NCBI GenBank assembly: GCA_043754515.1 | Contig: JAYUUO010000274.1 | Location: 1-23,201 of the forward strand | Length of the DNA: 23,201 bases | Direction: 5' to 3' | DNA from: Armatimonadota bacterium | Lineage (GTDB): Bacteria; Armatimonadota; Armatimonadia; Armatimonadales; Armatimonadaceae | Part shown: positions 1-23,201 of the stretch, piece after piece | Layout of the letters: every line of letters begins with the position of its first letter | Numbering within the stretch: position 1 is the stretch's first letter | Notes under the pieces: generated by a model | Seen by the model: the letters and a program-made list of their open reading frames with translations, nothing else | Databases searched by the model: none | What the model was told of the DNA's origin: nothing | Position numbers and translations under genes: made by a program

Positions 1-2
1 CC

Positions 3-3155: not shown

Positions 3156-4592
3156 TTACGGGACGACCTCGAAGTGCAGGTCGTCGGTCACGAAAGTGGG
3201 GGCACCCCCCGCCGCGCGGACCTTTCTCAGGCTGCGCCCGCGTGCGCCGGCGATAGGCAATGTCCGGCGCCCGTCCGCGCCGGGCGGGGGGAACGCATCG
3301 AGCACCGCGCGGGCGGACTCCTCGTCCGTGAACAGGATCGCTTTGATCCGCTCGTCGCCCTCGGTGTCCGCGACGAAGGTGCCGAGTGTGATGCGCTGAC
3401 CCGCGACCGCGGCGACGGGCACGGGGGACTCGTCGGGGTAGATCAGGTTTATATCGCCCGCCGTCCCGCGCTCCATTACCACCAGGTACCCCGGCTGCAT
3501 TGCCAGCACCGCGAGCGTGATCCGCTCCCCTTTTTTGTTGGTGGACTGGTCAGGCGACATGATCAGGCGCAGAGCGGCACGGTTCGGGTTGTCTGTGTTG
3601 TATTCCCCCCACAGATTTCGCTCTCCGACACGCCCCGCGTTAGCCGTTCCCGATGTTTTGGCCGGGGTGGGGGACTGAGGTGCTAGGAAGTTCAGCCCCC
3701 GGAATGTCGGCGTCAGGGCGGGGTGTTGCTGATCGCCGGTACTAAAAGCGACTTCGGCGGCGACGGCGGTCTGCACGTCCGACCAGCGTAGCGCGGCACT
3801 CCCGGACTGGCCCAGAACATGCAACAGGCAGTAGGTGAAGACCCCGCGCGGCTCGCCCCCGAGGCGCTTCTCCGCCGCCTGTTCGGCGGGGCGTGCCGCG
3901 ACGAAATAGCAGATACTCGCGTCGCTCGCGGCGGCGAAGGCGAGGCTAGCACTGCCCGAGAGCGACGTCTGATCGCTGCCGCTGTCGCGGAAGCCGCCCG
4001 CGACGCCGTCCGCCCGGACGCCGCTCCGGGCCTTGCTCCAGTAGCGCGTCTTTACTGTCTTGTCCTGCTTTTTGACCGAGCGCATCATCGCGCCGGAAAA
4101 GCACGAGTCGAGGAACACGGTGCGCGAGGAAGCCGGCACGGCACGCACCAGCGTTTCCAATTCCGTGGCGGCGATGTCATGCGCGGTGCCGTCCCGGTCG
4201 GTATCGGCGGGGAGGATGAACCCCGTGTTGCCGCCGTCGCTCGTGCCGTGCCCCGCGAACGCGAAGACGAACGGCACCCCGCTGCTCCCCCGCGTTTTAG
4301 CGTCGGCGAGCGCGGCGCGTATGGCGTCGCGGGATGCGTTCGTTAGCACGGTGACCGTGAAACCACGCGCCGTGAGCACCGCGCCCAGACGCGTCGCGTC
4401 GTTCACGCACCCGGTGAGTTGCGCCGCGTCATCGAGCGCGGGGTAGTGGTCAACGCCGACCACGACCGCGATTCCGGCGGGGGGCGACGCGGCTACCGGG
4501 CCTTGCGCGGACGCGAATGGCAGAGCCGCAGGACCTGAAATCGCGGGGCACAGGATGACTGCGGCCGCGTGAATGATGAAACGTACTCTCAT
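3156..4592 (-). CDS. Exported caspase-family (peptidase C14, metacaspase-like) protease with C-terminal DUF4384-like domain
   Basis: Signal-like N-terminus (MRVRFIIHAAAVILC...ASAQ); VVVGVDHYP...LTGCVNDA; catalytic His in FAGHG and Cys in FLDSCFSG; GVFTYCLL; C-terminal GERITL...PGYLVVM...INLIYP. Real start taken as ATG 4592, 14 nt after the upstream stop. Confidence 0.9.
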   Translation of the reverse strand: MRVRFIIHAAAVILCPAISGPAALPFASAQGPVAASPPAGIAVVVGVDHYPALDDAAQLTGCVNDATRLGAVLTARGFTVTVLTNASRDAIRAALADAKTRGSSGVPFVFAFAGHGTSDGGNTGFILPADTDRDGTAHDIAATELETLVRAVPASSRTVFLDSCFSGAMMRSVKKQDKTVKTRYWSKARSGVRADGVAGGFRDSGSDQTSLSGSASLAFAAASDASICYFVAARPAEQAAEKRLGGEPRGVFTYCLLHVLGQSGSAALRWSDVQTAVAAEVAFSTGDQQHPALTPTFRGLNFLAPQSPTPAKTSGTANAGRVGERNLWGEYNTDNPNRAALRLIMSPDQSTNKKGERITLAVLAMQPGYLVVMERGTAGDINLIYPDESPVPVAAVAGQRITLGTFVADTEGDERIKAILFTDEESARAVLDAFPPPGADGRRTLPIAGARGRSLRKVRAAGGAPTFVTDDLHFEVVP

Positions 4593-4606
4593 TAGCGTGG
4601 GGGCTG

Positions 4607-6811
4607 TTACGGCGCGGAAATGACGCAACGGAACCCGACATCCTCCTGACCTATATTCGGGAGCGAAAAGGCTCGCAATGTGACGCCTAGATCGGCGGCG
4701 ACCGCCGGGAGCAGGAACGACCCGCCGCGCAGACAGTAATTCTTTTTGTTGGCGTTCGTGTCGAACCCCGCGTTGCCCGGATATGCCTCGTAGACGGAGT
4801 CGCACCACTCCCAGACGTTGCCCAGCATATCGAGCGCGCCGTAAGGACTGGCACCGCCGGGGAGCGAACCGACCGGCAGGGCGCGACGGATACCGTAGGA
4901 TCGCCCGTTCTGGAGGAGCGGGTTTGCGACCGTGCCATAGGGGAACGGCCGCTCGTCCGTGCCCCGCGCCGCCTTCTCCCACTCGGCCTCCGTCGGCAGT
5001 CGCTTGCCTGCCCAGACCGCGTACGCCCGCGCGTCGTCGAGAGTCACCCGCGCCGCCGGAAGTTTCCCCTCTTCCACGCCGGACGGCGGGACCCAATCGC
5101 CCTTCACCTTGTAGCTGGTCTCCTTGACGAACTCGGCGTACCGCGCGGCGGTGGTTTCCGTCCGGTCAACCCAGAATCCGGCGACGGTGACACTATGGCG
5201 CGGGCGGGCGTTCGCGGTGTCGTCGCTCCCCATGATAAAGGCGCCTGGCGCGACGAACACCATGGCGGCGTGATCCTTCTGCCACACGGAACCGCCACCT
5301 TCCGCGCCCGACAGGCCCGCCGGGGTCTCGCCCGGACCCGGCGCCCGTAGCCCAGGCAGTGTTTTGCTCAAGGGGATTCTGACCAGCACCGCGCCGCCTT
5401 TCGGGACCAACGCCGTTTGTTCACTCGTCGCGAACCCGTCCCGCTCGGCGCGGATCGCGTGGCTGCCGGCGGGTAGGTTCGCGAAGCGGGTCAGTGGCGC
5501 GAGGGTGGCCCCCGTGTCACGCCCGTCCACCGATATGCGCGCGCCCGTCTCCGTTTCGAGCAGCAAGTCGCCCTGGGTTTCCTCGACGCGTAGCACATAG
5601 CTACGGAACGCCGGGCGCACCGGGCTGACGAACACCTCCTCGGTCTCCGGCAAGTACCCCGGCTTGTAGACCGTGATCCGGTGCGAACCGCGTCCGAGCG
5701 CGGCGGAGAACGGGGTCACTCGCGGTTCGGTCTCCCGGTCGATATACACCGTCGCGCCGAGCGGGCTGGTGGTGACTTTCAGGCTACCGCTCCCCGCGAC
5801 TTCGCCCGCCGCGCCCGTGGGGGCCGACAGGCTAAGTACACCCGCTACCGACGTCGCGAGGATCGGCGTCTGCGGCGCGCGGGTGTTGTCCGTGCCGCCT
5901 TTACGGAGCTGGGTGTACACATAGCGGTACAAGCCGTCCACGCTCACCTGGCCCGTCGCCGGATCGGCGGCCTCGCCATCCAGCCCTTGCAGGAGGTAGT
6001 AGGTGAACGCGCCGTGTTTCAGGTCGTCGTACTCGAACGCCCGCTCGCCGGGGTCGCAACCCGTCATCACGGCCCGCCCGCGCCCCGACAATGCCAGCGA
6101 GTCCACGAACCCGCTTTTGATGCGCCCCTCGACGCTGACTCCGGGACGCGGGAAAGATCGTGCGTGGGGCGCGCCGCCGGCCGCGCTCGCCGCGGTGCCG
6201 CTGTAGCAGCAGTCGAGTAACACCACGGTCTGCTCGGAGCGCAGGCGCAGGAGCGAGGCACTCAGGTCGTCCATCGGCACCGCCGTGCCGAAAAGGTCGT
6301 CGGTGCGGGCGTCGTAAGGGATCAGATATTTACGGATCCCGTCTTCAGCGACGCCAGGGTCGAGGTCGGGCGCGCCGTGCCCGCTAAAATAGATTACCAC
6401 CATATCCTGCCGGCCCGCGACCTGGGGGAGCCAGGTGCCGAGCGCGGTGCGGATGTTCGCGGCGGTGGCGTCCTCGTCCACCAGGAGTTTGATGTGGTCG
6501 CGCGCGAAACTGCTCCGCTTCTCCAGCATGTCGGCGACGGAGCGGGCGTCCGCCGCCGGGTAGCGCAACTGGATCGCTGGGTCGCGGTACTTGCCGACCC
6601 CGATCACAACCGCCCAACGGTCCGCCGCGCCCTGCTCGTCAAGGCCGCGCACGCGGACCAGGTCTCGCGGCCTGCCGGGCGTTGGTTCGGTCGCGGTCGG
6701 CGTTTGCGCCCGTGCCCCGACCGCCACCATTGAGGCGGCCGCGAACAAACACGTCAGCAGTGCCCGCACGTGCATTCCGCCCCGTTTCCGTCCTCTGGTC
6801 ATTGTTCGCAT
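4607..6811 (-). CDS. Exported caspase-family protease with two PEGA domains and a C-terminal FGE-sulfatase (SUMF1/EgtB/PvdO-like) domain
   Basis: Signal peptide ending ARAQ; RWAVVIGVGKY, FSGHG, LLDCCYSG, HGAFTYYLLQGLDGEA; PEGA-like GSLKVTTSPLGATVYID...KPGY and GARISVDG...RDGF; FGE motifs RLPTEAEWEKAARG, DMLGNVWEWC, RGGSF, GFRCV. Start uncertain (GTG 6844, ATG 6811 with GGGAG, 6802 or 6775). Confidence 0.9.
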   Translation of the reverse strand: MRTMTRGRKRGGMHVRALLTCLFAAASMVAVGARAQTPTATEPTPGRPRDLVRVRGLDEQGAADRWAVVIGVGKYRDPAIQLRYPAADARSVADMLEKRSSFARDHIKLLVDEDATAANIRTALGTWLPQVAGRQDMVVIYFSGHGAPDLDPGVAEDGIRKYLIPYDARTDDLFGTAVPMDDLSASLLRLRSEQTVVLLDCCYSGTAASAAGGAPHARSFPRPGVSVEGRIKSGFVDSLALSGRGRAVMTGCDPGERAFEYDDLKHGAFTYYLLQGLDGEAADPATGQVSVDGLYRYVYTQLRKGGTDNTRAPQTPILATSVAGVLSLSAPTGAAGEVAGSGSLKVTTSPLGATVYIDRETEPRVTPFSAALGRGSHRITVYKPGYLPETEEVFVSPVRPAFRSYVLRVEETQGDLLLETETGARISVDGRDTGATLAPLTRFANLPAGSHAIRAERDGFATSEQTALVPKGGAVLVRIPLSKTLPGLRAPGPGETPAGLSGAEGGGSVWQKDHAAMVFVAPGAFIMGSDDTANARPRHSVTVAGFWVDRTETTAARYAEFVKETSYKVKGDWVPPSGVEEGKLPAARVTLDDARAYAVWAGKRLPTEAEWEKAARGTDERPFPYGTVANPLLQNGRSYGIRRALPVGSLPGGASPYGALDMLGNVWEWCDSVYEAYPGNAGFDTNANKKNYCLRGGSFLLPAVAADLGVTLRAFSLPNIGQEDVGFRCVISAP

Positions 6812-6850
6812 TTGACTCCCGTCATCGGCCGATGACACATTCACGCCTCA

Positions 6851-8752
6851 TCACTTCGGTAGGGCGATCTCGGATAACTTCCCGTCGTCGGACATCACAT
6901 ATAACTTGTCGCCCGCGATGTATGGCTCGCCGCACACCTTGCCGTTCGTCTCGTACTTCCAGATGAGCTGTCCGGTACGCGCGTCCAGAGCGTAGACGTG
7001 CGTATCCATGCTACCCACGTAGACGATGCCCTCGCTCACGAGCGGCACCGAGAGCGGGGCGGTCGCGTTTTTGAACGTCCACGCGACGGAGCCGTCCTGC
7101 CGACTGATGGCAATCATCTCGTTGTCGGACGTCGTGCAGTAAAGGAACTGGTCGCCGATCACCGTGGTACCGGCGTACTCGCCTTTGGTGAAAATCTCGT
7201 GGTGCCAGAGCAGTTTCCCCGCCTCCGCGTCCGCCGCGAACACCTCCCGCGCCGTGGTGCCGTAGCAAAACTTGTGGTTCGCGCTCATCAGAAGGGTCCC
7301 CGCGAGTGCCGCCTTGCTTCGGGAGGAGGGTACGGCGATGCTCCACAGCGGCGTCAGTTTGCCGCTTCTTTTGAGCGAGGCTATGTCGAGCGAGACGCAT
7401 TCCAGCACGGCACCGCCGTCCTGCTCCAGGCGGAATGGCTCGCGCCTGGTCCCGCTCCCGGTCAGTTTAGTCGGCATCGCCATCGTCCATACCTTTTCGC
7501 TGTCGGCCCCGGCGATGGTGTAGTAGCGGGCGTTGGCGTCGCCTCCCTGCTCGCTCTTCTCCCACACCGGCTTGCCGTCCGCGAGATTCAGAACCCCGAT
7601 CACGTCCAGGCCACCGTAAACAACCTTGTCGCCGACGATCACCGGTTGCGACGGGAAGTGCGATTCGTGCTCCCAGCGGAACACGCCGCTCTCCTTATCC
7701 ACGCAAGCGATGACGCCCCCGTCGTAGATATGTCGCTTGCTCTTCAGGGAGGGCATCCCGGTCAGGAAGCTTGAGAAGTCTTCGCTCGCCTCCGTCACCG
7801 CCTGGAAAAACATCACCCCGGACGCGGTGAGGATCCGCGACGTCCCCACGGTGGGCGGGAAAAACATCGGGTACTTGTTCTCGAACACCCACTCGCGTTG
7901 CATGGTCGCCAGATCCACGCAGTAGAGCACGCCGTTGGTCGCGCCGAAGACGACGTTCGCCCCGGAGATGCGCGGCGACGTGAAGGTGTTGACCCAGAAG
8001 CCGGTGTTCCGTCGCCATTCCTGTAGTGCCCTCGCGTTCCGCGCGTTCTCGCGCCCGGCGGCGACGGAGCGGAACTCCAGGGACCGGATCGGCGTGGAGG
8101 CAGTGCGCCCGCCGTCATACTGTATCGCGGCGACACGGGGCGGCTCGCCCGCGCCGACGACCAGATTCTCGGAAGCGAGTCGCTCCCTGATCGTGGACGA
8201 ATGCAGTATCAGGCAGGGAGACGCACTCCCCGTCGCGGGGGGGAGCGTCAGCCCGAACACGACCCCGGTTTCCGGGTCGAACAGCACCGCGCCGGAAGCG
8301 AGCGCGCCGCCGATGACGTTCGCCTCGTAGTAGGAGCCGTCGCGCCCTTGCTCGGGGACGCGGCGGCGGACGCGCAGAATCGCCGCGTCATACCCGACCA
8401 TGGCCGCGTCCGCCGGGCCGCCCTCCGGCAGTCCCCAAACGCGCAGCCGGGCGGCGGTGACCGCCTGCTTATCGGAGAGCGGCGTGATCGGGAACGGCTT
8501 CTGCCGCGAAACCCGCAGGAACGTGATCCCGTAATGAACCGACACCGACAGCACAGTGGCCGGGTACCGCTCGCCTTCAAACGTTACCGTCCAATCCTTC
8601 CCTGGTTTCGTGGGCGTCGGCACGACCAGCACGCCGTCCGCGTTCAGAAAAAACCCGGTCAGGGCAATATCGCCGGTCTGCGCCACGGGGAGGACGGGGG
8701 GCGGCGACACGGCGGCGTAGGCGACGACCGCGGGTAGGCAGGGTAAAAACAT
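6851..8752 (-). CDS. Degenerate trypsin-like domain plus PQQ/BamB-type beta-propeller repeats (probable pseudoprotease)
   Basis: N-terminal TGFFLNADGVLVV...ASGAVLFDPETGVVFG aligns by eye with the neighbouring trypsin domain. Propeller repeats include VVFGATNGVLYCVDLATMQREWVF and VYVGSMDTHVYALDARTGQLIWKY. ATG preceded by AAAGGAA. Confidence 0.8.
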   Translation of the reverse strand: MFLPCLPAVVAYAAVSPPPVLPVAQTGDIALTGFFLNADGVLVVPTPTKPGKDWTVTFEGERYPATVLSVSVHYGITFLRVSRQKPFPITPLSDKQAVTAARLRVWGLPEGGPADAAMVGYDAAILRVRRRVPEQGRDGSYYEANVIGGALASGAVLFDPETGVVFGLTLPPATGSASPCLILHSSTIRERLASENLVVGAGEPPRVAAIQYDGGRTASTPIRSLEFRSVAAGRENARNARALQEWRRNTGFWVNTFTSPRISGANVVFGATNGVLYCVDLATMQREWVFENKYPMFFPPTVGTSRILTASGVMFFQAVTEASEDFSSFLTGMPSLKSKRHIYDGGVIACVDKESGVFRWEHESHFPSQPVIVGDKVVYGGLDVIGVLNLADGKPVWEKSEQGGDANARYYTIAGADSEKVWTMAMPTKLTGSGTRREPFRLEQDGGAVLECVSLDIASLKRSGKLTPLWSIAVPSSRSKAALAGTLLMSANHKFCYGTTAREVFAADAEAGKLLWHHEIFTKGEYAGTTVIGDQFLYCTTSDNEMIAISRQDGSVAWTFKNATAPLSVPLVSEGIVYVGSMDTHVYALDARTGQLIWKYETNGKVCGEPYIAGDKLYVMSDDGKLSEIALPK

Positions 8753-8826
8753 AGCGCGTTCCTTTTCTCGTTGACTCGTTGTCCCGGTCGCGGGGCGGGT
8801 GGGATCTTATCCGGCGGTAACATGGC

Positions 8827-8863
8827 GGGTGCTTCCGGGGGACGGACAACCCCCGGAGCACCC
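8827..8863 (-). terminator. GC-rich stem-loop just downstream of the trypsin-PQQ gene (stabilising hairpin or weak terminator)
   Basis: GGGTGCTTCCGGGGG (8827-8841) pairs with CCCCCGGAGCACCC (8850-8863) with one bulge; 12 nt after the stop; no clear U-tract. Confidence 0.5.
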
Positions 8864-8875
8864 ATGCTCGGGCGG

Positions 8876-11089
8876 CTAGGCGACCGGGATACGCACGGTG
8901 TAAATGGTCCCGTCCTCCGTCGGTGCGTAGACCATGCCGCTCTTGATGAGCGGTTGGGAGCGCACGGGGCTGTTCGTCTGCACCCGCCAGTTCAGCGTGC
9001 CGGTGTGCGCGTCAATCACGTGGATGTAGCCGTCCGTGGAGCCGAAGAACAGCTGGCCGTCGTGGTAGGAGGGCGTGCCCACCTCGCCGCGCGTCGGGTA
9101 GACCCATAACTCTTTGCCGTCCGCGCCGTTGAAGGCGTGCAATTTGTGGTCCGTGGAGCCGATGTAAACGATGTCGTCCTGGATCAGCATATTCGACGTG
9201 AAGGAGACGGCACGCGCCTTGATCTTCGCGTCCTTATCCTTGCGCTTTTTCATCTCCTCTTCGGCTGCTTTCTGCTGGTCGTACATCCAACGGAGCTTGC
9301 CGTCACTCGCATCCACGGCGGCGATAACCTGCGCGGCGAGCGCGTAGATGACGCCTTTCTTCTCGTCCACGAACATCGCGGTCGAGAGCGGGCGGAGCCG
9401 GTCTTTGATGTCGCCGAAGTCGCGCCGCCACAGCACCTTTTTGGATTCGGGGTCGTAACGCTCCACGCGTGCTTTCCCGTTGCCGTAGAGTCGGAGCCGC
9501 TTGTTCTCCTCGTCCTTGCGCTTGCCCTCGACCTGCACCCCGATGCCGTACACGCCGAGCTTGCCCGCGTACCCGATGTGAAACCAGTCCGCCTTCGCGC
9601 CCTCCCGTTGCACCTCTCTCCAGATCTCCTTGCCCTGGAAGATGTCGAGGCACCCACGCTCGCCGATGCCGCCGTAGTAGACGCGGTCGTTGTAAAGGAC
9701 GGGGGTACCGACGAAACCGGTGTCAATCTGCCAATCAATGTTGCCGTTTCGCCGGTTCAGCCCGAACACGTGCCCGACGCCGTCTATGGTGATCGCCTCT
9801 TTGGGGCGGCTACCGAAGCCGAACATGGAGCCGAGCACGGAGCCGAGGCTGGTATCGGTACGCATTTCACTGCTCAGGTCGAGCGAGCCGGATACCGCGC
9901 AGATGATCTGATCGCTGACCACGGGGCCGTACGCGAACACCGTGCCGTCCGCCGCGTCCAGGAGCACTTCGGCGGGCTGTGTCGGTTGCGAAACATCCCA
10001 GCGTCGGAGGCGGCCGTCCGTGCTCCCGAAGAACATTTCGTTTTTCTGTAAAAACATCGGGGAGACGGCGGGCATCTTCAGCCCCGTGCTGTCGCGCCAG
10101 TCCGAAACGGCGCGGGCGGTGTTTTCGTCCTGGCTGGTCGTCGAGACGATGGGGAAGTTATAGCCGAATAGGACGGGCAACTCCTTCGAGACGCTGATCG
10201 TGTTCAGGATGCGGAGTTCGCCCGACTCGACCACGGCGAGAGGGTCGGTGTGCGCGACCGGCTTCGGCTTCAGAGTCTTCCCGGCGGACGAGATCAGGGT
10301 CTTGACCGGGTTGGACGGCACGGCGAGCGTGAGGTTCTGCGCCCCCGAGGTCATGCCCCGAGTCAGCACGCCGACCACCTCGCCCGTGTCCACCCGGAAG
10401 ACTGGCCCCCCGCTGTTGCCGTGCGTGACCGGCGCGTCTATCTGGAGCGCGGTCTCCCCCACGTAGGAGTTGGAATCGCCGCTGTAGCGCAAGCCGTTCA
10501 CCGAGCCGCGCGAGGTCGAGGAGTCGAGTGCCATGCCGAGCCAGACGACGACGAGCGGCTCCGGGTAGCCTGTCACCGCGATAGGCGAGCCGGTCGCCAC
10601 CGCCTCGGAGTCGCCCAGAGTGACGGTCGGCACCTCGCCTTTGACCGCGACCTGTAACAGCGCGAGGTCGTACTGCGCGTCTATCTTCAGCACCTGCGCC
10701 GACAACTTCTCCCGGTTTTTGTAGATGCAGGTGAACTTCTGGCCCCGGTCAACGACGTGCCGGTTCGTGATGAACAAGCCGTCCGAGGATACGAAGAAGC
10801 CCGACCCCCACTGTATGCCGCGCTCTGTGACCACCTCTAACATCGCCACAGCGGGCTTTACGGAGGCGATAAACTCACGCGCCTTCTGCTCGTCGAGCGA
10901 GTTGTTGGGGGGGGGTAATGGTGACGACGCGGGGAGGGGCGGGGGCGTCGCTGGCACAGCGGGGGCGGGTACCGGAGCCGGGGGGGCTGGCTGTTGCGCG
11001 CGGGCGTCGGTCGTCAGCGCCAGCGCGGCACCGGCGGGTAGAAGCGTGCCGATGCGCTTGATCAGGTCACGGCGGTTCAGTTCGGGCAT
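8876..11089 (-). CDS. Tat-exported trypsin-like (S1/HtrA-type, no PDZ) serine protease with C-terminal PQQ/BamB-type beta-propeller
   Basis: Start ATG 11089 with GGAG 7 nt upstream; twin-arginine signal MPELNRRDLIK...ARAQ; Pro-rich linker; GSGFFVSSDGLFITNRHVV (His), YDLALL (Asp), HGNSGGP (Ser); propeller repeats VYIGSTDHKLHAFNGADGKELW and FFGSTDGYIHVIDAHTGTLNW. Confidence 0.9.
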   Translation of the reverse strand: MPELNRRDLIKRIGTLLPAGAALALTTDARAQQPAPPAPVPAPAVPATPPPLPASSPLPPPNNSLDEQKAREFIASVKPAVAMLEVVTERGIQWGSGFFVSSDGLFITNRHVVDRGQKFTCIYKNREKLSAQVLKIDAQYDLALLQVAVKGEVPTVTLGDSEAVATGSPIAVTGYPEPLVVVWLGMALDSSTSRGSVNGLRYSGDSNSYVGETALQIDAPVTHGNSGGPVFRVDTGEVVGVLTRGMTSGAQNLTLAVPSNPVKTLISSAGKTLKPKPVAHTDPLAVVESGELRILNTISVSKELPVLFGYNFPIVSTTSQDENTARAVSDWRDSTGLKMPAVSPMFLQKNEMFFGSTDGRLRRWDVSQPTQPAEVLLDAADGTVFAYGPVVSDQIICAVSGSLDLSSEMRTDTSLGSVLGSMFGFGSRPKEAITIDGVGHVFGLNRRNGNIDWQIDTGFVGTPVLYNDRVYYGGIGERGCLDIFQGKEIWREVQREGAKADWFHIGYAGKLGVYGIGVQVEGKRKDEENKRLRLYGNGKARVERYDPESKKVLWRRDFGDIKDRLRPLSTAMFVDEKKGVIYALAAQVIAAVDASDGKLRWMYDQQKAAEEEMKKRKDKDAKIKARAVSFTSNMLIQDDIVYIGSTDHKLHAFNGADGKELWVYPTRGEVGTPSYHDGQLFFGSTDGYIHVIDAHTGTLNWRVQTNSPVRSQPLIKSGMVYAPTEDGTIYTVRIPVA

Positions 11090-11166
11090 TGGGTTCTCCG
11101 TTTCAGCGACGTACGCTCGGGTAGCGACACGCCACCCTTTCCCTATCGTATCTATACATCTCCCGA

Positions 11167-11216
11167 CGGGAGCAGACACTTATTCGGCGTGTCCGCTCCC
11201 GCTTCCTTCTTATTTT
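11167..11216 (+). terminator. Stem-loop followed by a pyrimidine/T-rich tract on the + strand (antisense to the array)
   Basis: CGGGAGCAGACAC (11167-11179) / GTGTCCGCTCCCG (11189-11201), one mismatch, then CTTCCTTCTTATTTT. Confidence 0.4.
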
Positions 11217-11282
11217 CGAGAAAATGTTTTGCCTACAGAGAAACCCTAATGATCCAATCGTTGTCCTGCTATACGAAGTGTG

Positions 11283-13673: not shown

Positions 13674-13723
13674 AAGTTGGTTTCGATGCTTCCAAGTCTG
13701 CTACGTACAGGCTCTATAGCCAC

Positions 13724-13753
13724 AGTATACGACTCCGGCAACGCCGCGGACAA
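13724..13753 (-). promoter_or_regulatory. Candidate sigma70-type promoter for the GH26 sub-operon (TTGTCC-N18-TATACT)
   Basis: On the minus strand, TTGTCC at 13753-13748 and TATACT at 13729-13724, about 50 nt upstream of the ATG at 13673. Confidence 0.45.
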
Positions 13754-13758
13754 TGACG

Positions 13759-13782
13759 CGGATCACATTGCCGGGTGATCCG
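13759..13782. promoter_or_regulatory. Perfect 8-bp inverted repeat CGGATCAC-N8-GTGATCCG (possible operator or hairpin)
   Basis: Directly upstream of the candidate -35 element in the 314-bp intergenic gap. Confidence 0.35.
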
Positions 13783-13921
13783 GACCAAACAGGGCGACGC
13801 GGGGCCTTCGCCCGCGCTTAGACGCCGCCCGCGAACGACCGGGCGATGGCGCGATTGTTACGGGGCGCGTGTACTCCTAGGGCGATTGCATCACAGACCG
13901 GTTGCCGATTCCCGTTTCGTG

Positions 13922-13940
13922 CGGGGATCAACGATCCCCG
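13922..13940 (-). terminator. Stem-loop CGGGGATC-AAC-GATCCCCG downstream of the caspase-PEGA-TPR gene
   Basis: Perfect 8-bp stem about 47 nt after the stop at 13988; no U-tract. Confidence 0.35.
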
Positions 13941-13987
13941 AACCCCGCTCCCCACCCCGGACCGTGATCGCGGCTAAGCGTGCGAGC

Positions 13988-16111: not shown

Positions 16112-16148
16112 AGTGTGTTTTGTTCCCGAGCGTGTATTAGAGAGGCGG

Positions 16149-18083
16149 TCAATATCCGGGGGAGACCGCGCGGAAGCCGTACCCGTTGTAGCGGGTCGCG
16201 GGCGCGACTTTACCGCGGTACGTCGCGCGGAAGTAGGTGGGGTTGTTCTCGTACCAGGAGCCGCCGCGCAGAGATCGGAAGTCCCCCCCGCCCGCGCTGA
16301 CCGGGTTGGGACTTGACGCCCGCTGGCGGCGGTAAAACCCGGCGTCGTAAACATCCTCGCACCACTGCCAGGCATTGCCCGCCATATCCAGAACCCCGTA
16401 CGGGGACGCGCCCGCCGGGTAGGACCCGACGGCGCGGGTGCCGACATCGGCGCGGCGTCCGCTCCCGAGCCGCAGGTTGCGCGTGTTCCAGCCGTTCCCC
16501 CACGGGTATATCCGCCCGTCAACGCCCCGCGCGGCCTTCTCCCACTGTGCTTCCGAGGGAAGCCGCAGCCCCGCCCAGCGGCAATAGTCGCGGGCTTCGC
16601 CCCACGTGACATTCACGATCGGATGATCTTTGTTCTGCCAGCCGTCGTTGAACGGCGGCGCGGGCGGCATGGCGCGTTTCGTCGCCTGGCAGTACTCCTC
16701 GAACATGGCGACGGTGACGTCGGTCTTCCCGATCCGGTACTCGGCGAGATATACCCTATGCGCCGGTTTCATATCCTCGCGCCCGCCGTTCTCGCCCCTG
16801 TAAAACTCGCCTTCCAGGATCGTGACCATCTGCTCCTTGTATTCGGCGAGCGTCATAGGCGGCGCGGTCGGTGCCAGCGGCGCGATAACGGGCGCGTGTC
16901 CCGACGGCGGCGGCGCGACCACCCGCTCCAGCGTCACCGGCAGATTCACCGTGCGGCCGCGCAGGAGCGTGACCGACATCAGTTGCCCTTCGTAGCCGGG
17001 CGCGGTGACTTTAACGTCCACGTCCTTTTCCACTTCGGCGGCCAGATCCGCGACGAACACGCCGTTCTCGGCCACCTTTCCCGCCACGGTTACGGTGGCA
17101 TCGGAAGCGTTGGCGGTCACGGCGAGCCGCGCTTTGCCGTCAATCGGCGTCGCCGCGACCGGCTCGTCGGGGGGCGGCGTGACGCTCACGGGGGTACCAG
17201 TCGTTAGCACGAAGCCGTCCGCGCCAGGGCCGTCGAGCGACGGGTACGGCGTCTGATCTTTCTGTTCGCCGAGCCGTACCGCCTTATGAACCTCGCGGCT
17301 GACATAGGTCGCGAGCGACGCCAGCGTCACCCGCCCGCCCGCGTCCGCCGCCTTCCCCCGCAAACCCTGCTCCAGATAGTATGAGAAGTAGCCGCGCCCC
17401 TTCTCCGTCCATTCGTAGGAACGTTCATCCGGCCCGCACGAGTAGAACGTCGCCGCGACGAGCGACGCGGCGGGTGAATCGCCTGTGGCCGCCGCGCTTT
17501 TCTTGAAGTCCAGCCCGCGAGCGACGGAGCGTGTCATGTTGTTGTCGGACGAAACGGCGGTCTTGCCGGTTTTGAGCGGGCTGGAGCGGCACATGTCGAA
17601 CGCGAGAACCAGCGCCCGCGCCTTGATCTGCGCGAGTCGTTGTCGGAACTTGCCGACCGGGAGCGCGCTGTCGGCGAGCGATTCGGCGTCGAACGCCGTG
17701 GTGTCATAGGGGAGCAGATACGGCACGCCCGCGACCTCCATGCCGTGCCCGCCGTAGAGCACGAACACCGTGTCGCCGGGCGCGGCGTTCTGAGCCAGCC
17801 GCGCCAGTTCGGTCAGGATGTTGGAGCGCGTCGGTTTGACGTCGCCGTCGGAGACGAGTAGGCGGATATTGGCGTCGGGGAAGTTCGCGGCCTCGACCAG
17901 CGCGGCTTTCAGGGAGCGGGCGTCGGCGGCGGCACCCCCGAGCGCGTTGATGCGCCCCTGATCTTCGTAGCGGTCAATGCCGATCAGGAGCGCCCAGTTG
18001 TCGGCGCGGGCGGAGGCGGGCGGAATCAGGGCGAGAATTACCGCCATTAGTATGGTGGCGGAAAGACGGAGGTTAGCTCTCAT
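16149..18083 (-). CDS. Exported caspase-family protease with PEGA-like domain and C-terminal FGE-sulfatase domain
   Basis: Signal peptide ending ARA-DN; WALLIGIDRY, YGGHG, FDMCRS; PEGA-like ARLAVTANASDATVTVAG...APGYE; FGE motifs HPIVNVTW, RLPSEAQWEKAARG, DMAGNAWQWC, RGGSW, GFRAV. Confidence 0.92.
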   Translation of the reverse strand: MRANLRLSATILMAVILALIPPASARADNWALLIGIDRYEDQGRINALGGAAADARSLKAALVEAANFPDANIRLLVSDGDVKPTRSNILTELARLAQNAAPGDTVFVLYGGHGMEVAGVPYLLPYDTTAFDAESLADSALPVGKFRQRLAQIKARALVLAFDMCRSSPLKTGKTAVSSDNNMTRSVARGLDFKKSAAATGDSPAASLVAATFYSCGPDERSYEWTEKGRGYFSYYLEQGLRGKAADAGGRVTLASLATYVSREVHKAVRLGEQKDQTPYPSLDGPGADGFVLTTGTPVSVTPPPDEPVAATPIDGKARLAVTANASDATVTVAGKVAENGVFVADLAAEVEKDVDVKVTAPGYEGQLMSVTLLRGRTVNLPVTLERVVAPPPSGHAPVIAPLAPTAPPMTLAEYKEQMVTILEGEFYRGENGGREDMKPAHRVYLAEYRIGKTDVTVAMFEEYCQATKRAMPPAPPFNDGWQNKDHPIVNVTWGEARDYCRWAGLRLPSEAQWEKAARGVDGRIYPWGNGWNTRNLRLGSGRRADVGTRAVGSYPAGASPYGVLDMAGNAWQWCEDVYDAGFYRRQRASSPNPVSAGGGDFRSLRGGSWYENNPTYFRATYRGKVAPATRYNGYGFRAVSPGY

Positions 18084-18111
18084 GGGATGGATTGCTTTCG
18101 CGCGACACGGC

Positions 18112-19896
18112 TCACGGCGCGAGGCCGAGCGACTTGAACACCCAGTGGTTTTTGGCAGGCTCGCCCAGTTCGAGTGCTTTCTTCGCGTAGGGCGTGGCTT
18201 CCGCGCGCCGGTTCTGGTTGACGAGTGCCCCGGCCAGGTTCGCGTACGCCATGCGGAACGTCGGGTCCAGGCGGATCGCTTCCCGATACTGCGCCTCCGC
18301 CTCGGGTTGTTTCAACTGTGACCCCAGGCATACCCCGAGCTGGTTTCGGTAATTTTTGTTATTCGGTGCCAGGCGTATCGCCTCCTGGTACGCCGCCTCC
18401 GCTTCCACGAACTTCGTTTCGAGCCTTAGCGCGTTCCCCAGGAAATCCCAGACGACCGGGTCCGTGGGTGTCAGGCGGGTGGCCTCACGGAGCGGCACTT
18501 CGGCTTCCAGGTACTTCGTTTCCCCGTAAAGGGCGCGGCCCAGCCAGAACTGGTTCGGGCCGCTCGGGTCGAGGTGCACCGCCTCGCGCATCTCCTTCTC
18601 TGCCTCCGCGAACTCGCCGTTGAGGGACAGAATCGAGCCGAGCCAGTTCCGATACATCGCCGTTGTAGGCGCGAGTCGGATGGCCTCGCGGTAGAGCGGG
18701 ATCGCATCGGCGTACTTGCCCTGTCGGTACAGGCAGAAGCCGAGGTTACCCTGCATCACCGCGTCGCCGGGCGCGGCGGACGCCGCCAGGCGGTAATGCG
18801 GCTCCGCTTCGGCGTACCGCGCCTCCCCGTCCAGCGCGACGGCGAGCTGGTTGTGATACAGGGCACTATCCGGGTCCGTTTCTAACGCGAGGCGGTAAGC
18901 GGTTTCGGCGTCCGTCCACTTTTTATCCGCCAGTGCCTTGTTCCCGCGCGCCGCGTATTGCGCACCCGCCGATTGTTTGCTCTGTGACTGTGGGAGTGTC
19001 GCGACCGGGGGCGGGACGAGGGCGACGGGCGCGGCGGCCCGTGTGAAGGCGAAATCAACGGTCAGGGACGACTCATCCCAGGGGACCTGCTCGCCGTTGC
19101 TTTTGTCAATCACCACCTGGCGTGTCTTCTTGAACACCTGCTCAATGGACAGGCCGGGCGTCTGTAAGGACTCCAGGAGCGTCGCCGCGTACAGGCCGTT
19201 GTCGCTCGCGGTGTGTCCTGGCGCGGTCGCGTACGCGATGAACGAGCCGAGGGGCGCGTCGAGTTTCGCGAGTCCTCTGCCGCCGACGGAGCGGGTTTTG
19301 AGGTAGGGGTTGTTGCGGCAGGCGTCGAGGATCACGACGCTCATCCGGCATTTGGCGTCCTGCATCTCGTCGAGAACGCGTTGCGTGGGCAGGGAATCGT
19401 ACTCGATGTCGCGCTCGGTGTGTAGCGCGAAGCCGATCGGGATCAGGTAGTTCGTCCCCCGCACCTGCGCGCCGTGCCCGGAGTAGTAGAACAGAGCCAC
19501 CGTGCCCGGCCCGCGCGCCCGTATCGCGTCGCTGAAATCCGCCAGGTCGCCGCCCATCTCGCGGTTCGTGCGGTCGAGACGTAGCAACACCGTGAACCCC
19601 ATTTTTTGTAAGGCGTTCGCGAGCGAATGGGCATCGTTGACCGGGTTCATCAGCGCGTTGCTACCGTCGTAGTTCGTGTTCCCGATGATGAGCGCGACGC
19701 GCGGCTCGGCCGCGGCGACGGCGGCGTCCGCCTCCAGCCACTGTTTCCGGTCGGTTGCGCCTTGCGCTTTCGGCACCGGGGCCTGGGGCTGGGGGTCCGC
19801 CACTTGCGCGATAGCGGCCGATAGAGGGAAGGCCGCGAGCAGGGTGAGTACCACCCCAGCGCGGGTCATAGGACCGAAAACACGGCGTCTGTCCAA
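18112..19896 (-). CDS. Exported caspase-family (ortho/paracaspase-like) protease with C-terminal TPR repeats
   Basis: TTG start with AAGGAG 9 nt upstream; signal peptide ending AIAQ; RVALIIGNTNY...LMNPVNDA, YYSGHG, ILDACRNNP, FIAYATAPG, EQVPW; about 8 canonical TPRs (e.g. YADAIPLYREAIRLAP). Confidence 0.93.
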   Translation of the reverse strand: MDRRRVFGPMTRAGVVLTLLAAFPLSAAIAQVADPQPQAPVPKAQGATDRKQWLEADAAVAAAEPRVALIIGNTNYDGSNALMNPVNDAHSLANALQKMGFTVLLRLDRTNREMGGDLADFSDAIRARGPGTVALFYYSGHGAQVRGTNYLIPIGFALHTERDIEYDSLPTQRVLDEMQDAKCRMSVVILDACRNNPYLKTRSVGGRGLAKLDAPLGSFIAYATAPGHTASDNGLYAATLLESLQTPGLSIEQVFKKTRQVVIDKSNGEQVPWDESSLTVDFAFTRAAAPVALVPPPVATLPQSQSKQSAGAQYAARGNKALADKKWTDAETAYRLALETDPDSALYHNQLAVALDGEARYAEAEPHYRLAASAAPGDAVMQGNLGFCLYRQGKYADAIPLYREAIRLAPTTAMYRNWLGSILSLNGEFAEAEKEMREAVHLDPSGPNQFWLGRALYGETKYLEAEVPLREATRLTPTDPVVWDFLGNALRLETKFVEAEAAYQEAIRLAPNNKNYRNQLGVCLGSQLKQPEAEAQYREAIRLDPTFRMAYANLAGALVNQNRRAEATPYAKKALELGEPAKNHWVFKSLGLAP

Positions 19897-19919
19897 CTGC
19901 GATTACTCCTTCGCGGGAA

Positions 19920-19965
19920 TAGAAAAATCGCCCGCCGGGGATAGTGTATCCCATCCCCGGCGAGC
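19920..19965 (-). terminator. Intrinsic terminator-like hairpin inside the array
   Basis: The minus strand reads GCTCGCCGGGGAT-loop-ATCCCCGGCGGGC then GATTTTTCTATT, starting 8 nt after the stop at 19974 and just before the RBS of the caspase-TPR gene. Confidence 0.6.
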
Positions 19966-19973
19966 CGAACCGA

Positions 19974-21275
19974 TCAGGGCGCGGTTTTGATGGTACCCAG
20001 GGGTGTCTGTACCGTTTTCGAGCCGCGCGATTTCTCCGCCGGTGCCGCGGAGCCCGTTTTGCCGTCGGCGGGCACTACCGGCAGTTTCAGCGAAAGCGCG
20101 ACCCACGTTCCGGGCGCGTCCCGTTTCATCATGCCGAGGATACGCTCGGTCTCCTCGTCCAACTTCCCTTTCGTCGGCGCGACCGCGACCGGGGCGACCC
20201 CGACCGCCCCGCCGATCACCGCGACCGGCGCGCCCGCCGAGATTGTGTCCGGGACGCCGTACGGGGGCAAATCGGGAACGCCGTACTGCGGCGTGTCCGG
20301 CTCCAGCGCGCCCGGCAGGAGCGCGACCCCGCGCATCGAGAGGAGCGTGACGCCCGGCACGGCGACGTTCGCTTTGTCCGCGTCCTTGCGGCGGAGCAGG
20401 ATCACCCATTCCGTCGCGCCCGACTTCGGCGCGATAAACGGCGAGTTCGGCGGCAGGGTGACGGCGCGGCCCGGCGATCCGTCCAGCGGCTCGTTCTGCG
20501 CGTAGGGCGAGGACGGCTTGCCGTTCACACCCAGCGACAGGATATAGATCGTGCCCGCGTCCTGCGGCGAAACGCGGAGCCGGTACTTCTCGCCCGGTAG
20601 CAGCGTGTTACGTGGCTGCGCGTTCCCCGCGCCCTCGGTGATGACGTCCGCCGTTAATCGGGGGGACGCCGTCGCGGTTTTGATCAGGGCATTGTAGACC
20701 TCGGGCGGCGTGCCGCCGCCGCCGCCCGCCTTTACGCCGCCGGACGCGCCGCCGACCACGGTCGCGATGCGGCTTGCCAGTTCCCCGGCGAGGCCGAGAG
20801 TGCTGACCCCCGCGTCCTTGCCGATGTTGCCGGTCAAATCGCGCAAGCCGCGCGCCGTCCCCGCCCACTGGCCGACGAGGTGCCGACCGTTCCCACCGGC
20901 GTGGAAGAGGCGCACGACGCACAGATACGCCTCGTTGCCGCTCCGTTCGCCTTCGAGTTGCGACAGTTCGCCCTCGATGGTGAATGCGTCGCCACGGCTC
21001 GCCGCGCCGCTCTCCGGGGTGAACCGGCCTTTCGACGATTCCGAGAGTGCCTTGCGGAGTGCGACCGAGAACCGCTCGTTGATCGGCACGCCGTCCGGGC
21101 CTTTGGGCGTCGCGCCGCCGGGGTTTTCCAGCGACTTGACGCGCACGACGATCCCGCCGGGTGCCTCGGCGGCGCGGGCGATTCCGGGGTGCAGGACGCC
21201 GGTACTCAGCACCGCCCCTCCGGTTAGTAATAGGGCGCATGCGAGCACGCCCGTTGACTTCAGATTCATTAACAT
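19974..21275 (-). CDS. Exported non-protease protein: alpha/beta N-terminal domain (possibly CsgG/FlgO/TolB-N-like) plus DUF4384-like domain
   Basis: AAGGA RBS; signal peptide ending ARA-AE; N-domain FSVALRKALSE...FTIEGELSQL...YLCVVRLF; DUF4384-like LLPGEKYRLRVSPQDAGTIYILSLGVNGK...VTLP; no HG/DxC dyad. Confidence 0.75.
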   Translation of the reverse strand: MLMNLKSTGVLACALLLTGGAVLSTGVLHPGIARAAEAPGGIVVRVKSLENPGGATPKGPDGVPINERFSVALRKALSESSKGRFTPESGAASRGDAFTIEGELSQLEGERSGNEAYLCVVRLFHAGGNGRHLVGQWAGTARGLRDLTGNIGKDAGVSTLGLAGELASRIATVVGGASGGVKAGGGGGTPPEVYNALIKTATASPRLTADVITEGAGNAQPRNTLLPGEKYRLRVSPQDAGTIYILSLGVNGKPSSPYAQNEPLDGSPGRAVTLPPNSPFIAPKSGATEWVILLRRKDADKANVAVPGVTLLSMRGVALLPGALEPDTPQYGVPDLPPYGVPDTISAGAPVAVIGGAVGVAPVAVAPTKGKLDEETERILGMMKRDAPGTWVALSLKLPVVPADGKTGSAAPAEKSRGSKTVQTPLGTIKTAP

Positions 21276-21415
21276 GGTTCCTTCAGCCGCGTCAGTCGCG
21301 GGGAAAATAGAGTGGGGGACTTGCCCGCCCGTCAGCGCGTCCTGGTATGCGCGTTTCGCTTCTACCGCGCGGTTGACCGGCGCGAGCGGGTATGTTCCCC
21401 GAATGCTTCCGTTTC

Positions 21416-21467
21416 ATCGCCCCAGAAAGGCGATACGGGGACGGGTCGCGCCACGGCTCCCGTCCCC
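21416..21467 (-). terminator. Two tandem stem-loops downstream of the caspase-DUF4384 gene
   Basis: GGGGACGGG (21437-21445)/CCCGTCCCC (21459-21467), 10 nt after the stop at 21478, plus ATCGCC/GGCGAT (21416-21434). Confidence 0.45.
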
Positions 21468-21477
21468 CTCGTTCGCT

Positions 21478-22944
21478 CTACGGCGCGGCGACGCCGGGGG
21501 CGGCGGATCCCGTGTTCGCGGACCCGGTGTTCGCGTCCACGATCTGCGTGATCACTTCCGAGGTCGCGTAGTTGACGCCAGGGTTCGTGCGGTCCGCCGG
21601 CTCAACCCATTCGCGGATGCCCATCTTGCTCTGCCGGATCGCGCCGCGCGAGAACGTGCGCATGAACTTGCGCGCCGCGTCGGGCGCGGTGAAGAGCATC
21701 GCCTTCACGCTGTCGGTGCCGACCGCGTCGTTGACGAAAGAGCCGCTTGGTTTTTTCGGGACGCCGATGTTGCTCCCCGCCGTCACCTGCGCCGCCGAGA
21801 TCTCCGCGTTCGCGCCGCGCGGGAACAGGAGCGTCAGCTTGCCCTTCGGGTCGCGCCCGATCACGATCAGGTAGCCGCTCGCGCCGACCGAAATGTCGAA
21901 GCGGATTTGTGTCTGGTTGACCACCACGGGCGAGGTCGCGGGGCGGAACACGAGCGATATTTTCGATGGGTCGGGCGCGGACAGCGCGTACAGTTTCTCC
22001 AGCGTCAGCGGCTGCGGTTGCGGCGGTGTCGGCTCGCTCCCGCCGGGCTGGTCGAACGCGACGCGTTGCAGGTAGTCAGTGGGGTACAGGAGCGGCTTCT
22101 GCTCGCCCTCCGTGGCGTCCGAAACGTCGCGGCTGACCGTCGCGCTCAGATCCTGCCACAGGCTGCGCTTCCCGGTCATGTTCCTCGCGAGGCTGTAGGT
22201 GAACACGCCGTGCGTCTCGCCCCCGAGCTGGGTTTCGGCGGCGACCTGTGTCTTCAGGGCGGCGGTGAAGTAGCAGATGCTCCCGTCCGGCGGCAACTGT
22301 TTCTTCAAATCGTCCGCGCCGTTGGTCTCGACTTCCTTCCACTCCTTCGTGCCGCGCTTCTTGGTGCGCACATAAAAGCGGGGCACGCGGTTCTTGAAGC
22401 TCTTCAGTCCCTTCAGGTCGCGCACCATCCCGCCCGAGTGGCAGGAGTCGAGGACGATGGTTTTGCTACCGCTCGGCAACGCCTTGACCGCCTCGTACAG
22501 TTCGGTGGTCTGGATGTCGTGATCTTCGGAGCCGTCCCGCGCGTCGCCGGGCAGGATTACAGAGTCGCCGCTGCTACCGACGGTGCCGTGTCCGGCGAAG
22601 TAGAACACCACGCGGTCGCGGTTCGTGACCCTGGTGGAGAGCGAGTGGATCGCGGCGAGAATGGCGTCGTGCGACGCTTCGGCGTCGGTCAGTATCACGA
22701 TGTTGGACGAGGAAAAGCCGTACGCGGGCAGTCTGCTGGCGAACAGCCGCGCGTCGCCGTCGCACCCGTTCAGGTTCGATCCGGGGCGTAGGCCGGGGTA
22801 CTGATTAACTCCGCAGACGATGGCATAGTCGGCGGCATGCGCGGCGGGCGCGGCGAGCACGGCGGCGAGTCCGGCGGCGACGGCCCCGGCGACGGGGGAG
22901 TAGCGCGGCAAGCGGCTTAACGAACGGTAGAGTGTTGAAAACAT
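21478..22944 (-). CDS. Exported caspase-family (metacaspase-like) protease with C-terminal DUF4384-like domain; paralog of 3156..4592
   Basis: GGAGG RBS; signal peptide ending AHA-AD; AIVCGVNQYP...LNGCDGDA, FAGHG, VLDSCHSG, HGVFTYSL; tail IRFDISVGASGYLIVIGRDPKGKLTLLFP. Confidence 0.92.
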   Translation of the reverse strand: MFSTLYRSLSRLPRYSPVAGAVAAGLAAVLAAPAAHAADYAIVCGVNQYPGLRPGSNLNGCDGDARLFASRLPAYGFSSSNIVILTDAEASHDAILAAIHSLSTRVTNRDRVVFYFAGHGTVGSSGDSVILPGDARDGSEDHDIQTTELYEAVKALPSGSKTIVLDSCHSGGMVRDLKGLKSFKNRVPRFYVRTKKRGTKEWKEVETNGADDLKKQLPPDGSICYFTAALKTQVAAETQLGGETHGVFTYSLARNMTGKRSLWQDLSATVSRDVSDATEGEQKPLLYPTDYLQRVAFDQPGGSEPTPPQPQPLTLEKLYALSAPDPSKISLVFRPATSPVVVNQTQIRFDISVGASGYLIVIGRDPKGKLTLLFPRGANAEISAAQVTAGSNIGVPKKPSGSFVNDAVGTDSVKAMLFTAPDAARKFMRTFSRGAIRQSKMGIREWVEPADRTNPGVNYATSEVITQIVDANTGSANTGSAAPGVAAP

Positions 22945-23000
22945 ACAGAGTCCTCCAGATTGATTACGAACGGTCGCTGCCGGGCAGTCCCGACAGCAGT

Positions 23001-23006
23001 AGTATA
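23001..23006 (-). promoter_or_regulatory. Candidate -10 element TATACT upstream of the caspase-DUF4384 gene
   Basis: TATACT on the minus strand about 56 nt upstream of ATG 22944; the -35 match is poor. Confidence 0.3.
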
Positions 23007-23046
23007 GTACACGCGGGGAGGCGTGTGCTACGTGCGGGAACGCACA

Positions 23047-23070
23047 TTAAAAGAGTGATCATTGTCACTC
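23047..23070 (-). terminator. Short hairpin GAGTGA-N6-TCACTC plus TTTT (weak terminator; alternatively a CRP/FNR-like operator)
   Basis: Perfect 6-bp inverted repeat 2 nt after the stop at 23073, followed by TTTTAA on the minus strand. Confidence 0.4.
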
Positions 23071-23072
23071 CG

Positions 23073-23201
23073 TCACTTTTGCTTCAGCGCGACCGGGAAA
23101 TCGGGCACCGTCGCGGGCTTGGTCGTGGTCGGCGTCTGCGTGCCCTTCGTCAGTGCTTTCACCCGCTCCGAGATATACAGGTCGAGCATATTGATCGTGA
23201 T
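23073..23201 (-). CDS. 3' end of an upstream gene: C-terminus of a caspase-family protein (not in the ORF track)
   Basis: Manual translation of the minus strand from 23201 gives ITINMLDLYISERVKALTKGTQTPTTTKPATVPDFPVALKQK*. This matches the caspase C-terminal I...L..Y...V...T...QxP motif, also seen here as VSVDGLYRYVYTQL...QTP and LATYVSREVHK...QTP. Confidence 0.75.
   Translation of the reverse strand: MTINMLDLYISERVKALTKGTQTPTTTKPATVPDFPVALKQK

Follow-up and report, generated by a model that had tools for sequence, protein, structure and literature searches.

We analyzed a 23,201-nt stretch of DNA from an Armatimonadota bacterium (NCBI GenBank assembly GCA_043754515.1, contig JAYUUO010000274.1, positions 1 to 23,201 of the forward strand), which carries an array of genes for caspase-like proteases of the C14 family. 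This stretch, hereafter called the window, is the entire contig C274 of a 5.13-Mb genome in 313 contigs (92.7% complete). The array belongs to an island that is best explained as an expansion specific to its lineage, built around a conserved operon of four genes, C1-J-I-W, encoding a papain-family protease (C1), a caspase (J), an adaptor (I) and a WD40-caspase (W). An earlier note made from the sequence alone had described a co-oriented 20-kb array, and the map of open reading frames (ORFs) indeed reveals ten minus-strand genes running in the same direction from 22944 to 3156, behind the truncated end of another gene at the right edge:

A, 3156..4592, minus strand: putative signal peptide, C14 domain of the J clade and DUF4384-like immunoglobulin (Ig) domain; a second copy of the core caspase type (Pfam, leader heuristic, tree).
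B, 4607..6775, minus strand: putative signal peptide, C14 domain (DCCYSG), two PEGA domains, FGE/C-lectin-fold domain (Pfam, leader heuristic).
C, 6851..8752, minus strand: pseudo-trypsin with PQQ-type propeller; a paralog of D, 23% identical (Pfam, triad check).
D, 8876..11089, minus strand: leader of the twin-arginine type, HtrA-like trypsin whose triad is intact, and PQQ-type propeller (Pfam, motifs).
E, 11283..13673, minus strand: putative signal peptide; GH26-like glycosidase in which both Glu motifs of the catalytic type are present; the C-terminal domain resembles the DUF4384 of J (Pfam, motifs).
F, 13988..16111, minus strand: putative signal peptide, C14 domain (DMCRS), PEGA, helical repeats; local paralog of G (Pfam, blastn, tree).
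G, 16149..18083, minus strand: putative signal peptide, C14 domain (DMCRS), PEGA, FGE/C-lectin-fold domain (Pfam, leader heuristic, tree).
H, 18112..19869, minus strand: putative signal peptide, C14 domain (DACRNNP clade), TPR array (Pfam, leader heuristic, tree).
I, 19974..21275, minus strand: adaptor of the core, from a family without a name; a TolB-N/PelC/CsgG/FlgT-like domain is predicted at about residues 41-178, together with an Ig-like sandwich (structure model).
J, 21478..22944, minus strand: core metacaspase-like C14 protease with DUF4384; basic linker after the catalytic Cys (Pfam, model).
K, 23073..23201, minus strand: last 42 residues of a WD40-C14 protein, the W-type core gene (similar to the very C-terminal end of WD40-C14 proteins from relatives).

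The Pfam search identified Peptidase_C14 in A, B, F, G, H and J far above the cut-off (E-values from 1e-17 to 1e-36), and all six exhibit the GHG and DxC motifs, the latter as DSCFSG, DCCYSG, DMCRS (twice), DACRNNP and DSCHSG, in agreement with the six intact C14 genes counted in the earlier note; the seventh, K, is real, but only its 42-residue tail is present. The same search also bore out the note's Trypsin_2 and PQQ_2 domains (C and D), GH26 (E), PEGA, FGE-sulfatase, TPR and DUF4384. Of the two proteins described as trypsin-propellers, both possess the predicted domains, but C, compared with Trypsin S1C, has the trypsin His and Asp replaced, whereas D retains the His-Asp-Ser triad. A tree of 74 C14 domains resolved four clades among the window genes (A/J, B, F/G and H), with tails exchanged among them, and pairwise identities of the C14 domains of 18-40%, save for 65% between F and G. 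F and G are the only close paralogs (DNA 71% identical over 820 nt), and a blastn comparison of the window with the genome found similar paralogs on contigs C102, C37, C271 and C279. The four clades agree with the earlier view that the array is not one simple tandem duplication. A hand-written heuristic for Sec-type leaders, used in place of SignalP, was passed by 8 of the 10 array genes as compared to 253 of the 1194 genes (21%) of the 45 largest contigs. D has a leader of the twin-arginine type and C only a short hydrophobic start. Judging from these leaders, the products of the array are likely exported out of the cytoplasm.

PADLOC, run on 12 window proteins, reported a generic caspase model and hits to trypsin and TPR domains. 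The model of the EACC1-associated caspase (NF047832, cut-off 140 bits) was not reached by the six window caspases, which score 51-105 bits. The scan revealed no gasdermin, as the earlier note had stated for the window, and a genome-wide search with PF04598 was empty, with its positive control equally silent. Parts of the Type III-E Craspase (Cas7-11, TPR-CHAT Csx29, Csx30) found no PADLOC match among the 12 window proteins, the rest of the genome lying outside this search, and Pfam detected no TPR-CHAT protein among the window ORFs. By these comparisons, no named system matches the island. We also considered that the C-lectin-fold sensors might be diversified by a diversity-generating retroelement (DGR) and rejected it: blastn found no near-identical copy of the 3' end of B or G in the genome (92.7% complete), nor was a template repeat found, and two reverse transcriptases are encoded on other contigs.

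The island continues past both edges of the window. In a public contig of 31,647 nt, from a run in which the present DNA may have its origin, positions 1-8997 correspond to window positions 17996-9000 and positions 18218-22654 to all of contig C102, beyond whose right end the public contig extends by 8,993 nt; a search for the contig that adjoins C102 on this side found none. The implied gap between the left edge of the window and C102 is 221 nt, equal to 75 in-frame codons, while the corresponding linker of F and G comprises 76 residues. Since this gap matches the F/G linker and the start of ORF 3-791 resembles the PEGA end of G, the ORF, whose nature the earlier note missed, is the remainder of a caspase gene begun on C102:

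3..791, plus strand: C-terminal part of the eighth caspase gene, PEGA end with a weakly DUF6263-like tail (F/G clade; C14 domain on C102).

Besides this eighth caspase, C102 contributes a CsgG-like protein, a ninth C14 gene and the papain-family gene C1, which is interrupted by the contig end; nine C14 genes lie within about 28 kb, C102 included. At the right edge, the 3' end of the WD40-caspase gene (window 23034-23201; L059:2-170) is a two-copy repeat with a depth of 38.8 as compared to about 24, which explains the break in the assembly. Its second copy, 97.6% identical over 169 nt, opens contig C7 and is followed by a region with a helicase/PLD-type gene. The body of K has no tblastn match in the assembly. 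Window positions 9000-23201 are covered in 29-30 of 30 bins by runs of three other studies, labelled ice, glacier and unspecified metagenome, in short pieces that are mostly 95-100% alike to the window, which indicates that close strains carry the island.

Profile searches over 401 genomes of the phylum revealed what is conserved. C14 genes as such are patchy (found in 22 of 40 relatives and in none of three genomes of the same genus). The family of I was detected in 20 genomes, of which 18 pass the cut-off of E<1e-30 and two weak hits were dropped; J-like genes occur in 32 genomes and C1 proteases in 48, with 19 of the latter belonging to a strong subfamily (E<1e-65). All 18 genomes with I, which span five families, also possess J and a C1 of the strong subfamily. 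In 16 of these 18 (11 of 13 outside the training set) J immediately precedes I, and in 17 of 19 C1 immediately precedes J, the window genome and G038 being the two that differ. At most three genes away from J or I, a W-type gene was seen in 13 of 18, two of these 13 being cut at contig ends. The full contiguous order C1-J-I-W was found in G240, G393, G121, G320, G221 and G173 (in G320 and G221 the contig ends within W), and J followed by I was also seen on reading 20 loci of relatives. The window genome has this core in another arrangement: W-J-I stand at the right end, and C1 is found past the left edge. Conservation is thus confined to C1-J-I-W, to which C/D, B, F, G and H have been added variably. 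Relatives do not share the 20-kb array in its entirety, and the accessory content differs in every genome seen. A full-length relative of D was found in one of 300 other genomes of the phylum, with no caspase near it, and a relative of E (37% identical) is directly upstream of C1-J in G095, where a 466-aa gene between J and W shows no match to I (hhalign probability 0.3). Two genomes that lack I encode another conserved protein behind J, of 414 aa, with no Pfam family and no obvious leader (L015:11294-12538; L017:8640-9884). Elsewhere, active caspases have as neighbors J paralogs in which the linker and the tail are retained, but the His and the Cys of the dyad are both lost (L044:11462-12733; L002:714-2084).

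J was modeled as a compact two-domain protein (predicted local distance difference test score, pLDDT, 83; predicted template modelling score, pTM, 0.86). Its closest structure is the plant type II metacaspase AtMC4 (Z-score 25.9, root-mean-square deviation (rmsd) 3.3, 231 residues aligned), which is blocked by a Lys of its linker and activated through cleavage of that linker (bioRxiv 2020.03.09.983940). Non-animal C14 proteases cut after Arg or Lys (PMC5756287), and the acidic Asp residues of the S1 type are invariant in the alignment of J, in line with a predicted preference for Arg/Lys at the P1 position. The J proteins carry a motif composed of a basic, a small or acidic and a hydrophobic residue (K-E-W/R-E-W in the window J, K-D-L/R-D-L elsewhere) at two places, in the linker after the catalytic Cys and in the segment before the last strand of DUF4384:

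22327..22350, minus strand: linker copy of the co-varying motif in J, a candidate self-cleavage site (motif comparison).
21598..21618, minus strand: tail copy of the co-varying motif in J, just before the last DUF4384 strand (motif comparison, model).

Of 52 J proteins collected, 33 are non-redundant, and one of these was dropped. In the remaining 32, all under 65% identity, the mean best 8-mer score of the linker is 21.9 against the tail of the same protein, 15.7 against the tails of other proteins and 14.8 +/- 0.6 against shuffled ones, and the own tail beats that of the nearest relative in 23 of the 32. As the two motifs change together, this suggests that the linker and the tail are read by one binding site, most simply the active site.

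The closest solved relative of C1 is xylellain (PDB 3ois, E-value 4.5e-22). The catalytic Gln, Cys, His and Asn of the C1A family are complete in full-length relatives, and Gln, Cys and His are present in the contig-cut copy of the window genome. In the C1 subfamily, 42 of 49 proteins (82 collected, 53 non-redundant, 4 without anchor) have an Arg followed by Gly, Ser or Ala in the last eight propeptide residues ahead of the probable start of the mature enzyme, as compared to 3 of 18 other C1 proteases (24 collected, 20 non-redundant, 2 dropped) and a background of 10.6% in random windows. The linker of W mostly carries a TRG-hydrophobic site in the six W proteins inspected; one has TKS.

The family of I has 116 representatives at E<=0.001 among 1.84 billion sequences, and scans with DNA patterns of I yielded two loci each in the genome and metagenome collections. 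The model of I has a mean pLDDT of 60, with its domains at about 70-85. The predicted N-terminal domain resembles folds known from the periplasm and the outer membrane: PelC (Z-score 11.3, rmsd 2.3, 109 residues aligned), TolB-N (Z-score 11.2), CsgG (Z-score 10.0) and also FlgT, and the second domain is an Ig-like sandwich with Z-scores of about 8 or less. The earlier note had called I a DUF4384-like adaptor: it has no Pfam hit to DUF4384 (PF14326), a language-model lead scored 0.90 and an Ig-like sandwich is predicted; by its model I is a two-domain protein of its own unnamed family. Two of the 19 longer members that we scanned are complete J-I fusions (P0066, P0077), and seven more match DUF4384; the fusions tie I functionally to J. 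The envelope-type fold predicted for I supports an extracytoplasmic location. Two other members of the family, P0040 and P0060, are fused to a C-terminal degenerate caspase-like domain, and in two metagenome loci I is followed by an unannotated protein of 660-690 aa (L060:3033-5090; L061:1823-3817).

Taken together, these features lead us to propose, at somewhat less than an even chance, that the products of C1-J-I-W are exported and act in the cell envelope as a relay of zymogens. First, J, W and the accessory caspases, with cuts that fall behind Arg or Lys, would be exported in a self-inhibited zymogen form. A ligand bound by the tail (WD40, TPR, C-lectin fold or propeller) or clustering on the ring-fold adaptor I could trigger cleavage of the basic linker of J and of the look-alike site in its DUF4384 tail, and an activated caspase, most simply W, would remove the short propeptide of C1 at the conserved Arg-Gly site, with the papain C1 as the output enzyme. 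To this the window genome has added further sensor-tailed caspases, a glycosidase with a DUF4384-like tag and the trypsin/pseudo-trypsin pair. The most likely purpose is surveillance of the envelope against damage or attackers, which is the weakest step of the explanation. As for the extracytoplasmic proteolytic network suggested earlier, its location agrees with the leaders and with the fold of I, and the relay gains indirect support for the core, but not for the whole array.

Several points weigh against such a relay. The genes with their catalytic residues and recurring order, the J-I fusions and the sequence motifs are observations, while the steps of the relay, with export, cleavage and binding among them, are inferred from sequence. 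Kin are not independent, the cut-off for the C1 subfamily was chosen after seeing the list, and the training alignments already included 11 of the 19 genomes with this C1 and 5 of the 18 with I. In the window genome, C1 is more than 25 kb from J on the opposite flank, and W precedes J. J also occurs without I, as follows from the 32 genomes with J-like genes and the 18 with I, and some J-like proteins lack the His-Cys dyad. In 8 of the 32 J proteins the tail of the nearest relative scores above the own tail. Any Arg within the propeptide window is found in 46 of 49 subfamily members, but also in 9 of 18 outgroup C1 proteases, and bacterial C1 proteases may self-activate. The RG-hydrophobic motif is only weakly enriched across ten window proteins (13 as compared to 6.9 expected, p 0.025, with four patterns tried), and a cleavage site shared by the accessory genes is thus not established. 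Neither a killing effector nor a regulated sigma factor was identified.

Three other explanations deserve to be weighed against the relay. The caspases could serve the maturation of a structure at the surface or in the periplasm, much like Arg-gingipain in the case of type V pili: a cut before the last strand of DUF4384 would free this strand for exchange between Ig domains, and J, A, E and I would polymerise or dock on a ring of I. The tail motif does immediately precede the last strand of the Ig sandwich, the fold of I is used for rings (PelC, CsgG, FlgT), another CsgG-like gene is present on C102 and DUF4384-like domains are attached to several partners; however, the conserved papain, its Arg-Gly propeptide site and the many ligand-binding tails are left unexplained, and the Ig matches reach merely Z-scores of 7-8 for a common arrangement. 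We consider this explanation unlikely, and to the same degree we doubt that the island is a hotspot of independent secreted proteases and hydrolases for feeding or predation, gathered without an ordered relay by duplication and recombination among C14/PEGA genes. The similarity of F and G at the DNA level and their paralogs on four other contigs, the exchange of tails among clades and the accessory genes that differ from genome to genome speak for such a hotspot, yet digestive enzymes would not be expected to keep the order C1-J-I-W over five families, nor to display J-I fusions, pseudo-enzymes and co-varying motifs.

Still less probable, in our estimate, is a module for triggered self-lysis, in which the caspases would activate a papain-fold wall hydrolase to break the producer cell, e.g. 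for the release of contractile injection particles. It draws on genomes G167, G077, G143, G207, G270 and G306, where a J-like gene adjoins a gene for a LysM-NlpC/P60 protein and further caspases. In G167 this cassette is directly behind an operon for sheath, tube, spike and baseplate, in G306 it is beside one, and in the other four it is behind relatives of the last two genes of that operon. The papain-fold partner hence appears swappable, as a LysM-NlpC/P60 protein pairs with J-like genes in these genomes. On the other hand, the partner in the window genome is a C1A protease without LysM, contractile-system genes were not seen at the C1-J-I-W loci examined, and the sheath family PF04984 has no match in the window genome at its 92.7% completeness (the control was positive in 3 of 14 genomes); a search for Pvc16 was empty, its control being silent too. 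Sheath, tube and baseplate genes are present at the J-like loci of G167 and G306, but as the window genome showed no sheath gene, the injection context is a lead rather than the function of the window. Contractile injection operons with an adjoining cassette of signal-peptide caspases were observed in L077:1-19998, L078:2-7747 and L063:1-9315 (G167), L079 and L070 (G306) and L002 (G011); the cassettes of G167 and G306 contain the LysM-NlpC/P60 hydrolase, and that of G167 a TPR protein.

Comparison with known systems places the caspases of the proposed relay among prokaryotic metacaspases and orthocaspases, with which the window genes share the catalytic family and the architectures. A survey from 2012 (PMC3501461) lists signal-peptide metacaspases, C14-FGE fusions and C14-TPR and C14-WD40 architectures, reports 98 of 671 metacaspases as membrane-linked, most via an N-terminal helix that is possibly a signal peptide, and counts 20 operons with two or three metacaspases. 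Three is the maximum per operon there, in contrast to nine C14 genes in about 28 kb here, and the parts of it consulted describe no C1-J-I-W order. The premise of the earlier note that the characterised caspase-like systems are cytoplasmic is qualified by these exported and multi-gene loci, and also by an exception, DdvA-DdvS of Myxococcus, with a periplasmic TPR-CHAT domain proposed to sense and self-cleave in a defence setting (PMC11506125). As in that system, the caspase-like domain here would be outside the cytoplasm and a gene for a sigma factor of the extracytoplasmic function (ECF) type lies near the array. DdvA is a membrane anti-sigma factor with TPR-CHAT and an incomplete dyad, whereas the window proteins are C14 proteases with complete dyads; no anti-sigma factor was seen, and the sigma gene of the window is convergent and not conserved beside the core. 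J and AtMC4 share the basic linker after the catalytic Cys, and the damage-triggered processing of the latter serves us as a working analogy, but the linker of J is much shorter, and J possesses a leader and a DUF4384 Ig domain. In the Craspase and gasdermin-protease systems a caspase-like protease acts on a dedicated substrate, as proposed here; these systems are cytoplasmic and include Cas7-11 or gasdermin, neither of which was matched in the window. The C-terminal domains of one group of Csx30 proteins are DUF4384, often fused to proteases (bioRxiv 2022.08.17.504292), and DUF4384 has also been noted on cyanobacterial orthocaspases (PMC7475262). From xylellain-type C1A proteases, its closest solved kin, the operon subfamily differs by the conserved Arg-Gly propeptide site and a GGPxxR tail; a link of xylellain to caspases did not turn up, no search being aimed at it. 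The gene set C1-J-I-W is not described in the parts consulted of the accounts of ternary conflict systems (PMC7159879) and DGR sensors (PMC10907252), and the literature searched, with most subscription journals outside the search, contained no account of the operon or of such a relay. Catalogues of exported bacterial metacaspases go back to 2012, and the literature found names neither a substrate nor a partner for them.

The ECF sigma factor gene is the remaining neighbor of the array in the window:

1459..3099, plus strand: ECF sigma factor whose C-terminal domain is unannotated; the gene converges with the array.

This C-terminal domain (~350 aa) has no Pfam match and looks phosphotransferase-like by eye. 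No sigma homolog is labelled beside the core in 14 loci of relatives, and no link of the ECF sigma factor to the system was seen there. A 111-aa ORF at window positions 981-1316 (minus strand) has a GC content of 45% and a GC content at third codon positions (GC3) of 47%, far below the genome, ends with CPxCG and has no Pfam match; by its composition it is likely a small foreign insertion. For the island itself we rejected a recent foreign origin, as its GC3 of 0.82-0.89 is no clear sign of one when compared to 0.79 +/- 0.07 genome-wide. Elsewhere in the phylum, C14 or DUF4384 proteins adjoin TPR-CHAT proteins (L018:8429-12966, with CHASE2 too; L019:4487-10549; L057), a recurring pairing distinct from the operon, and G092 contains six tandem near-identical ORFs of 184-188 aa (L082:2632-6029).

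C1-J-I-W is a real, undescribed conserved operon, composed of known enzyme families and one unnamed adaptor family, and it is strongly expanded in the window genome. We speculate, with more doubt than for the relay as such, that pattern-binding caspases assemble on a ring of the CsgG/PelC fold, cut one another at basic sites that have evolved together and switch on a swappable papain-fold effector (C1A here, LysM-NlpC/P60 behind contractile-injection operons), in an extracytoplasmic cascade that uses DUF4384 as a docking and cleavage tag. The locus offers a minimal set of four genes, a named candidate substrate in the Arg-Gly site of the C1 propeptide, and two sites at which J may cut itself; it also yields the first fold prediction for the adaptor family of I and a role for DUF4384 that can be tested. 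The variant linked to extracellular contractile injection systems provides a lead on the release or control of contractile injection particles in Armatimonadota. If true, prokaryotes would have in this cascade an equivalent of complement or of the metacaspase-papain signalling of plants.

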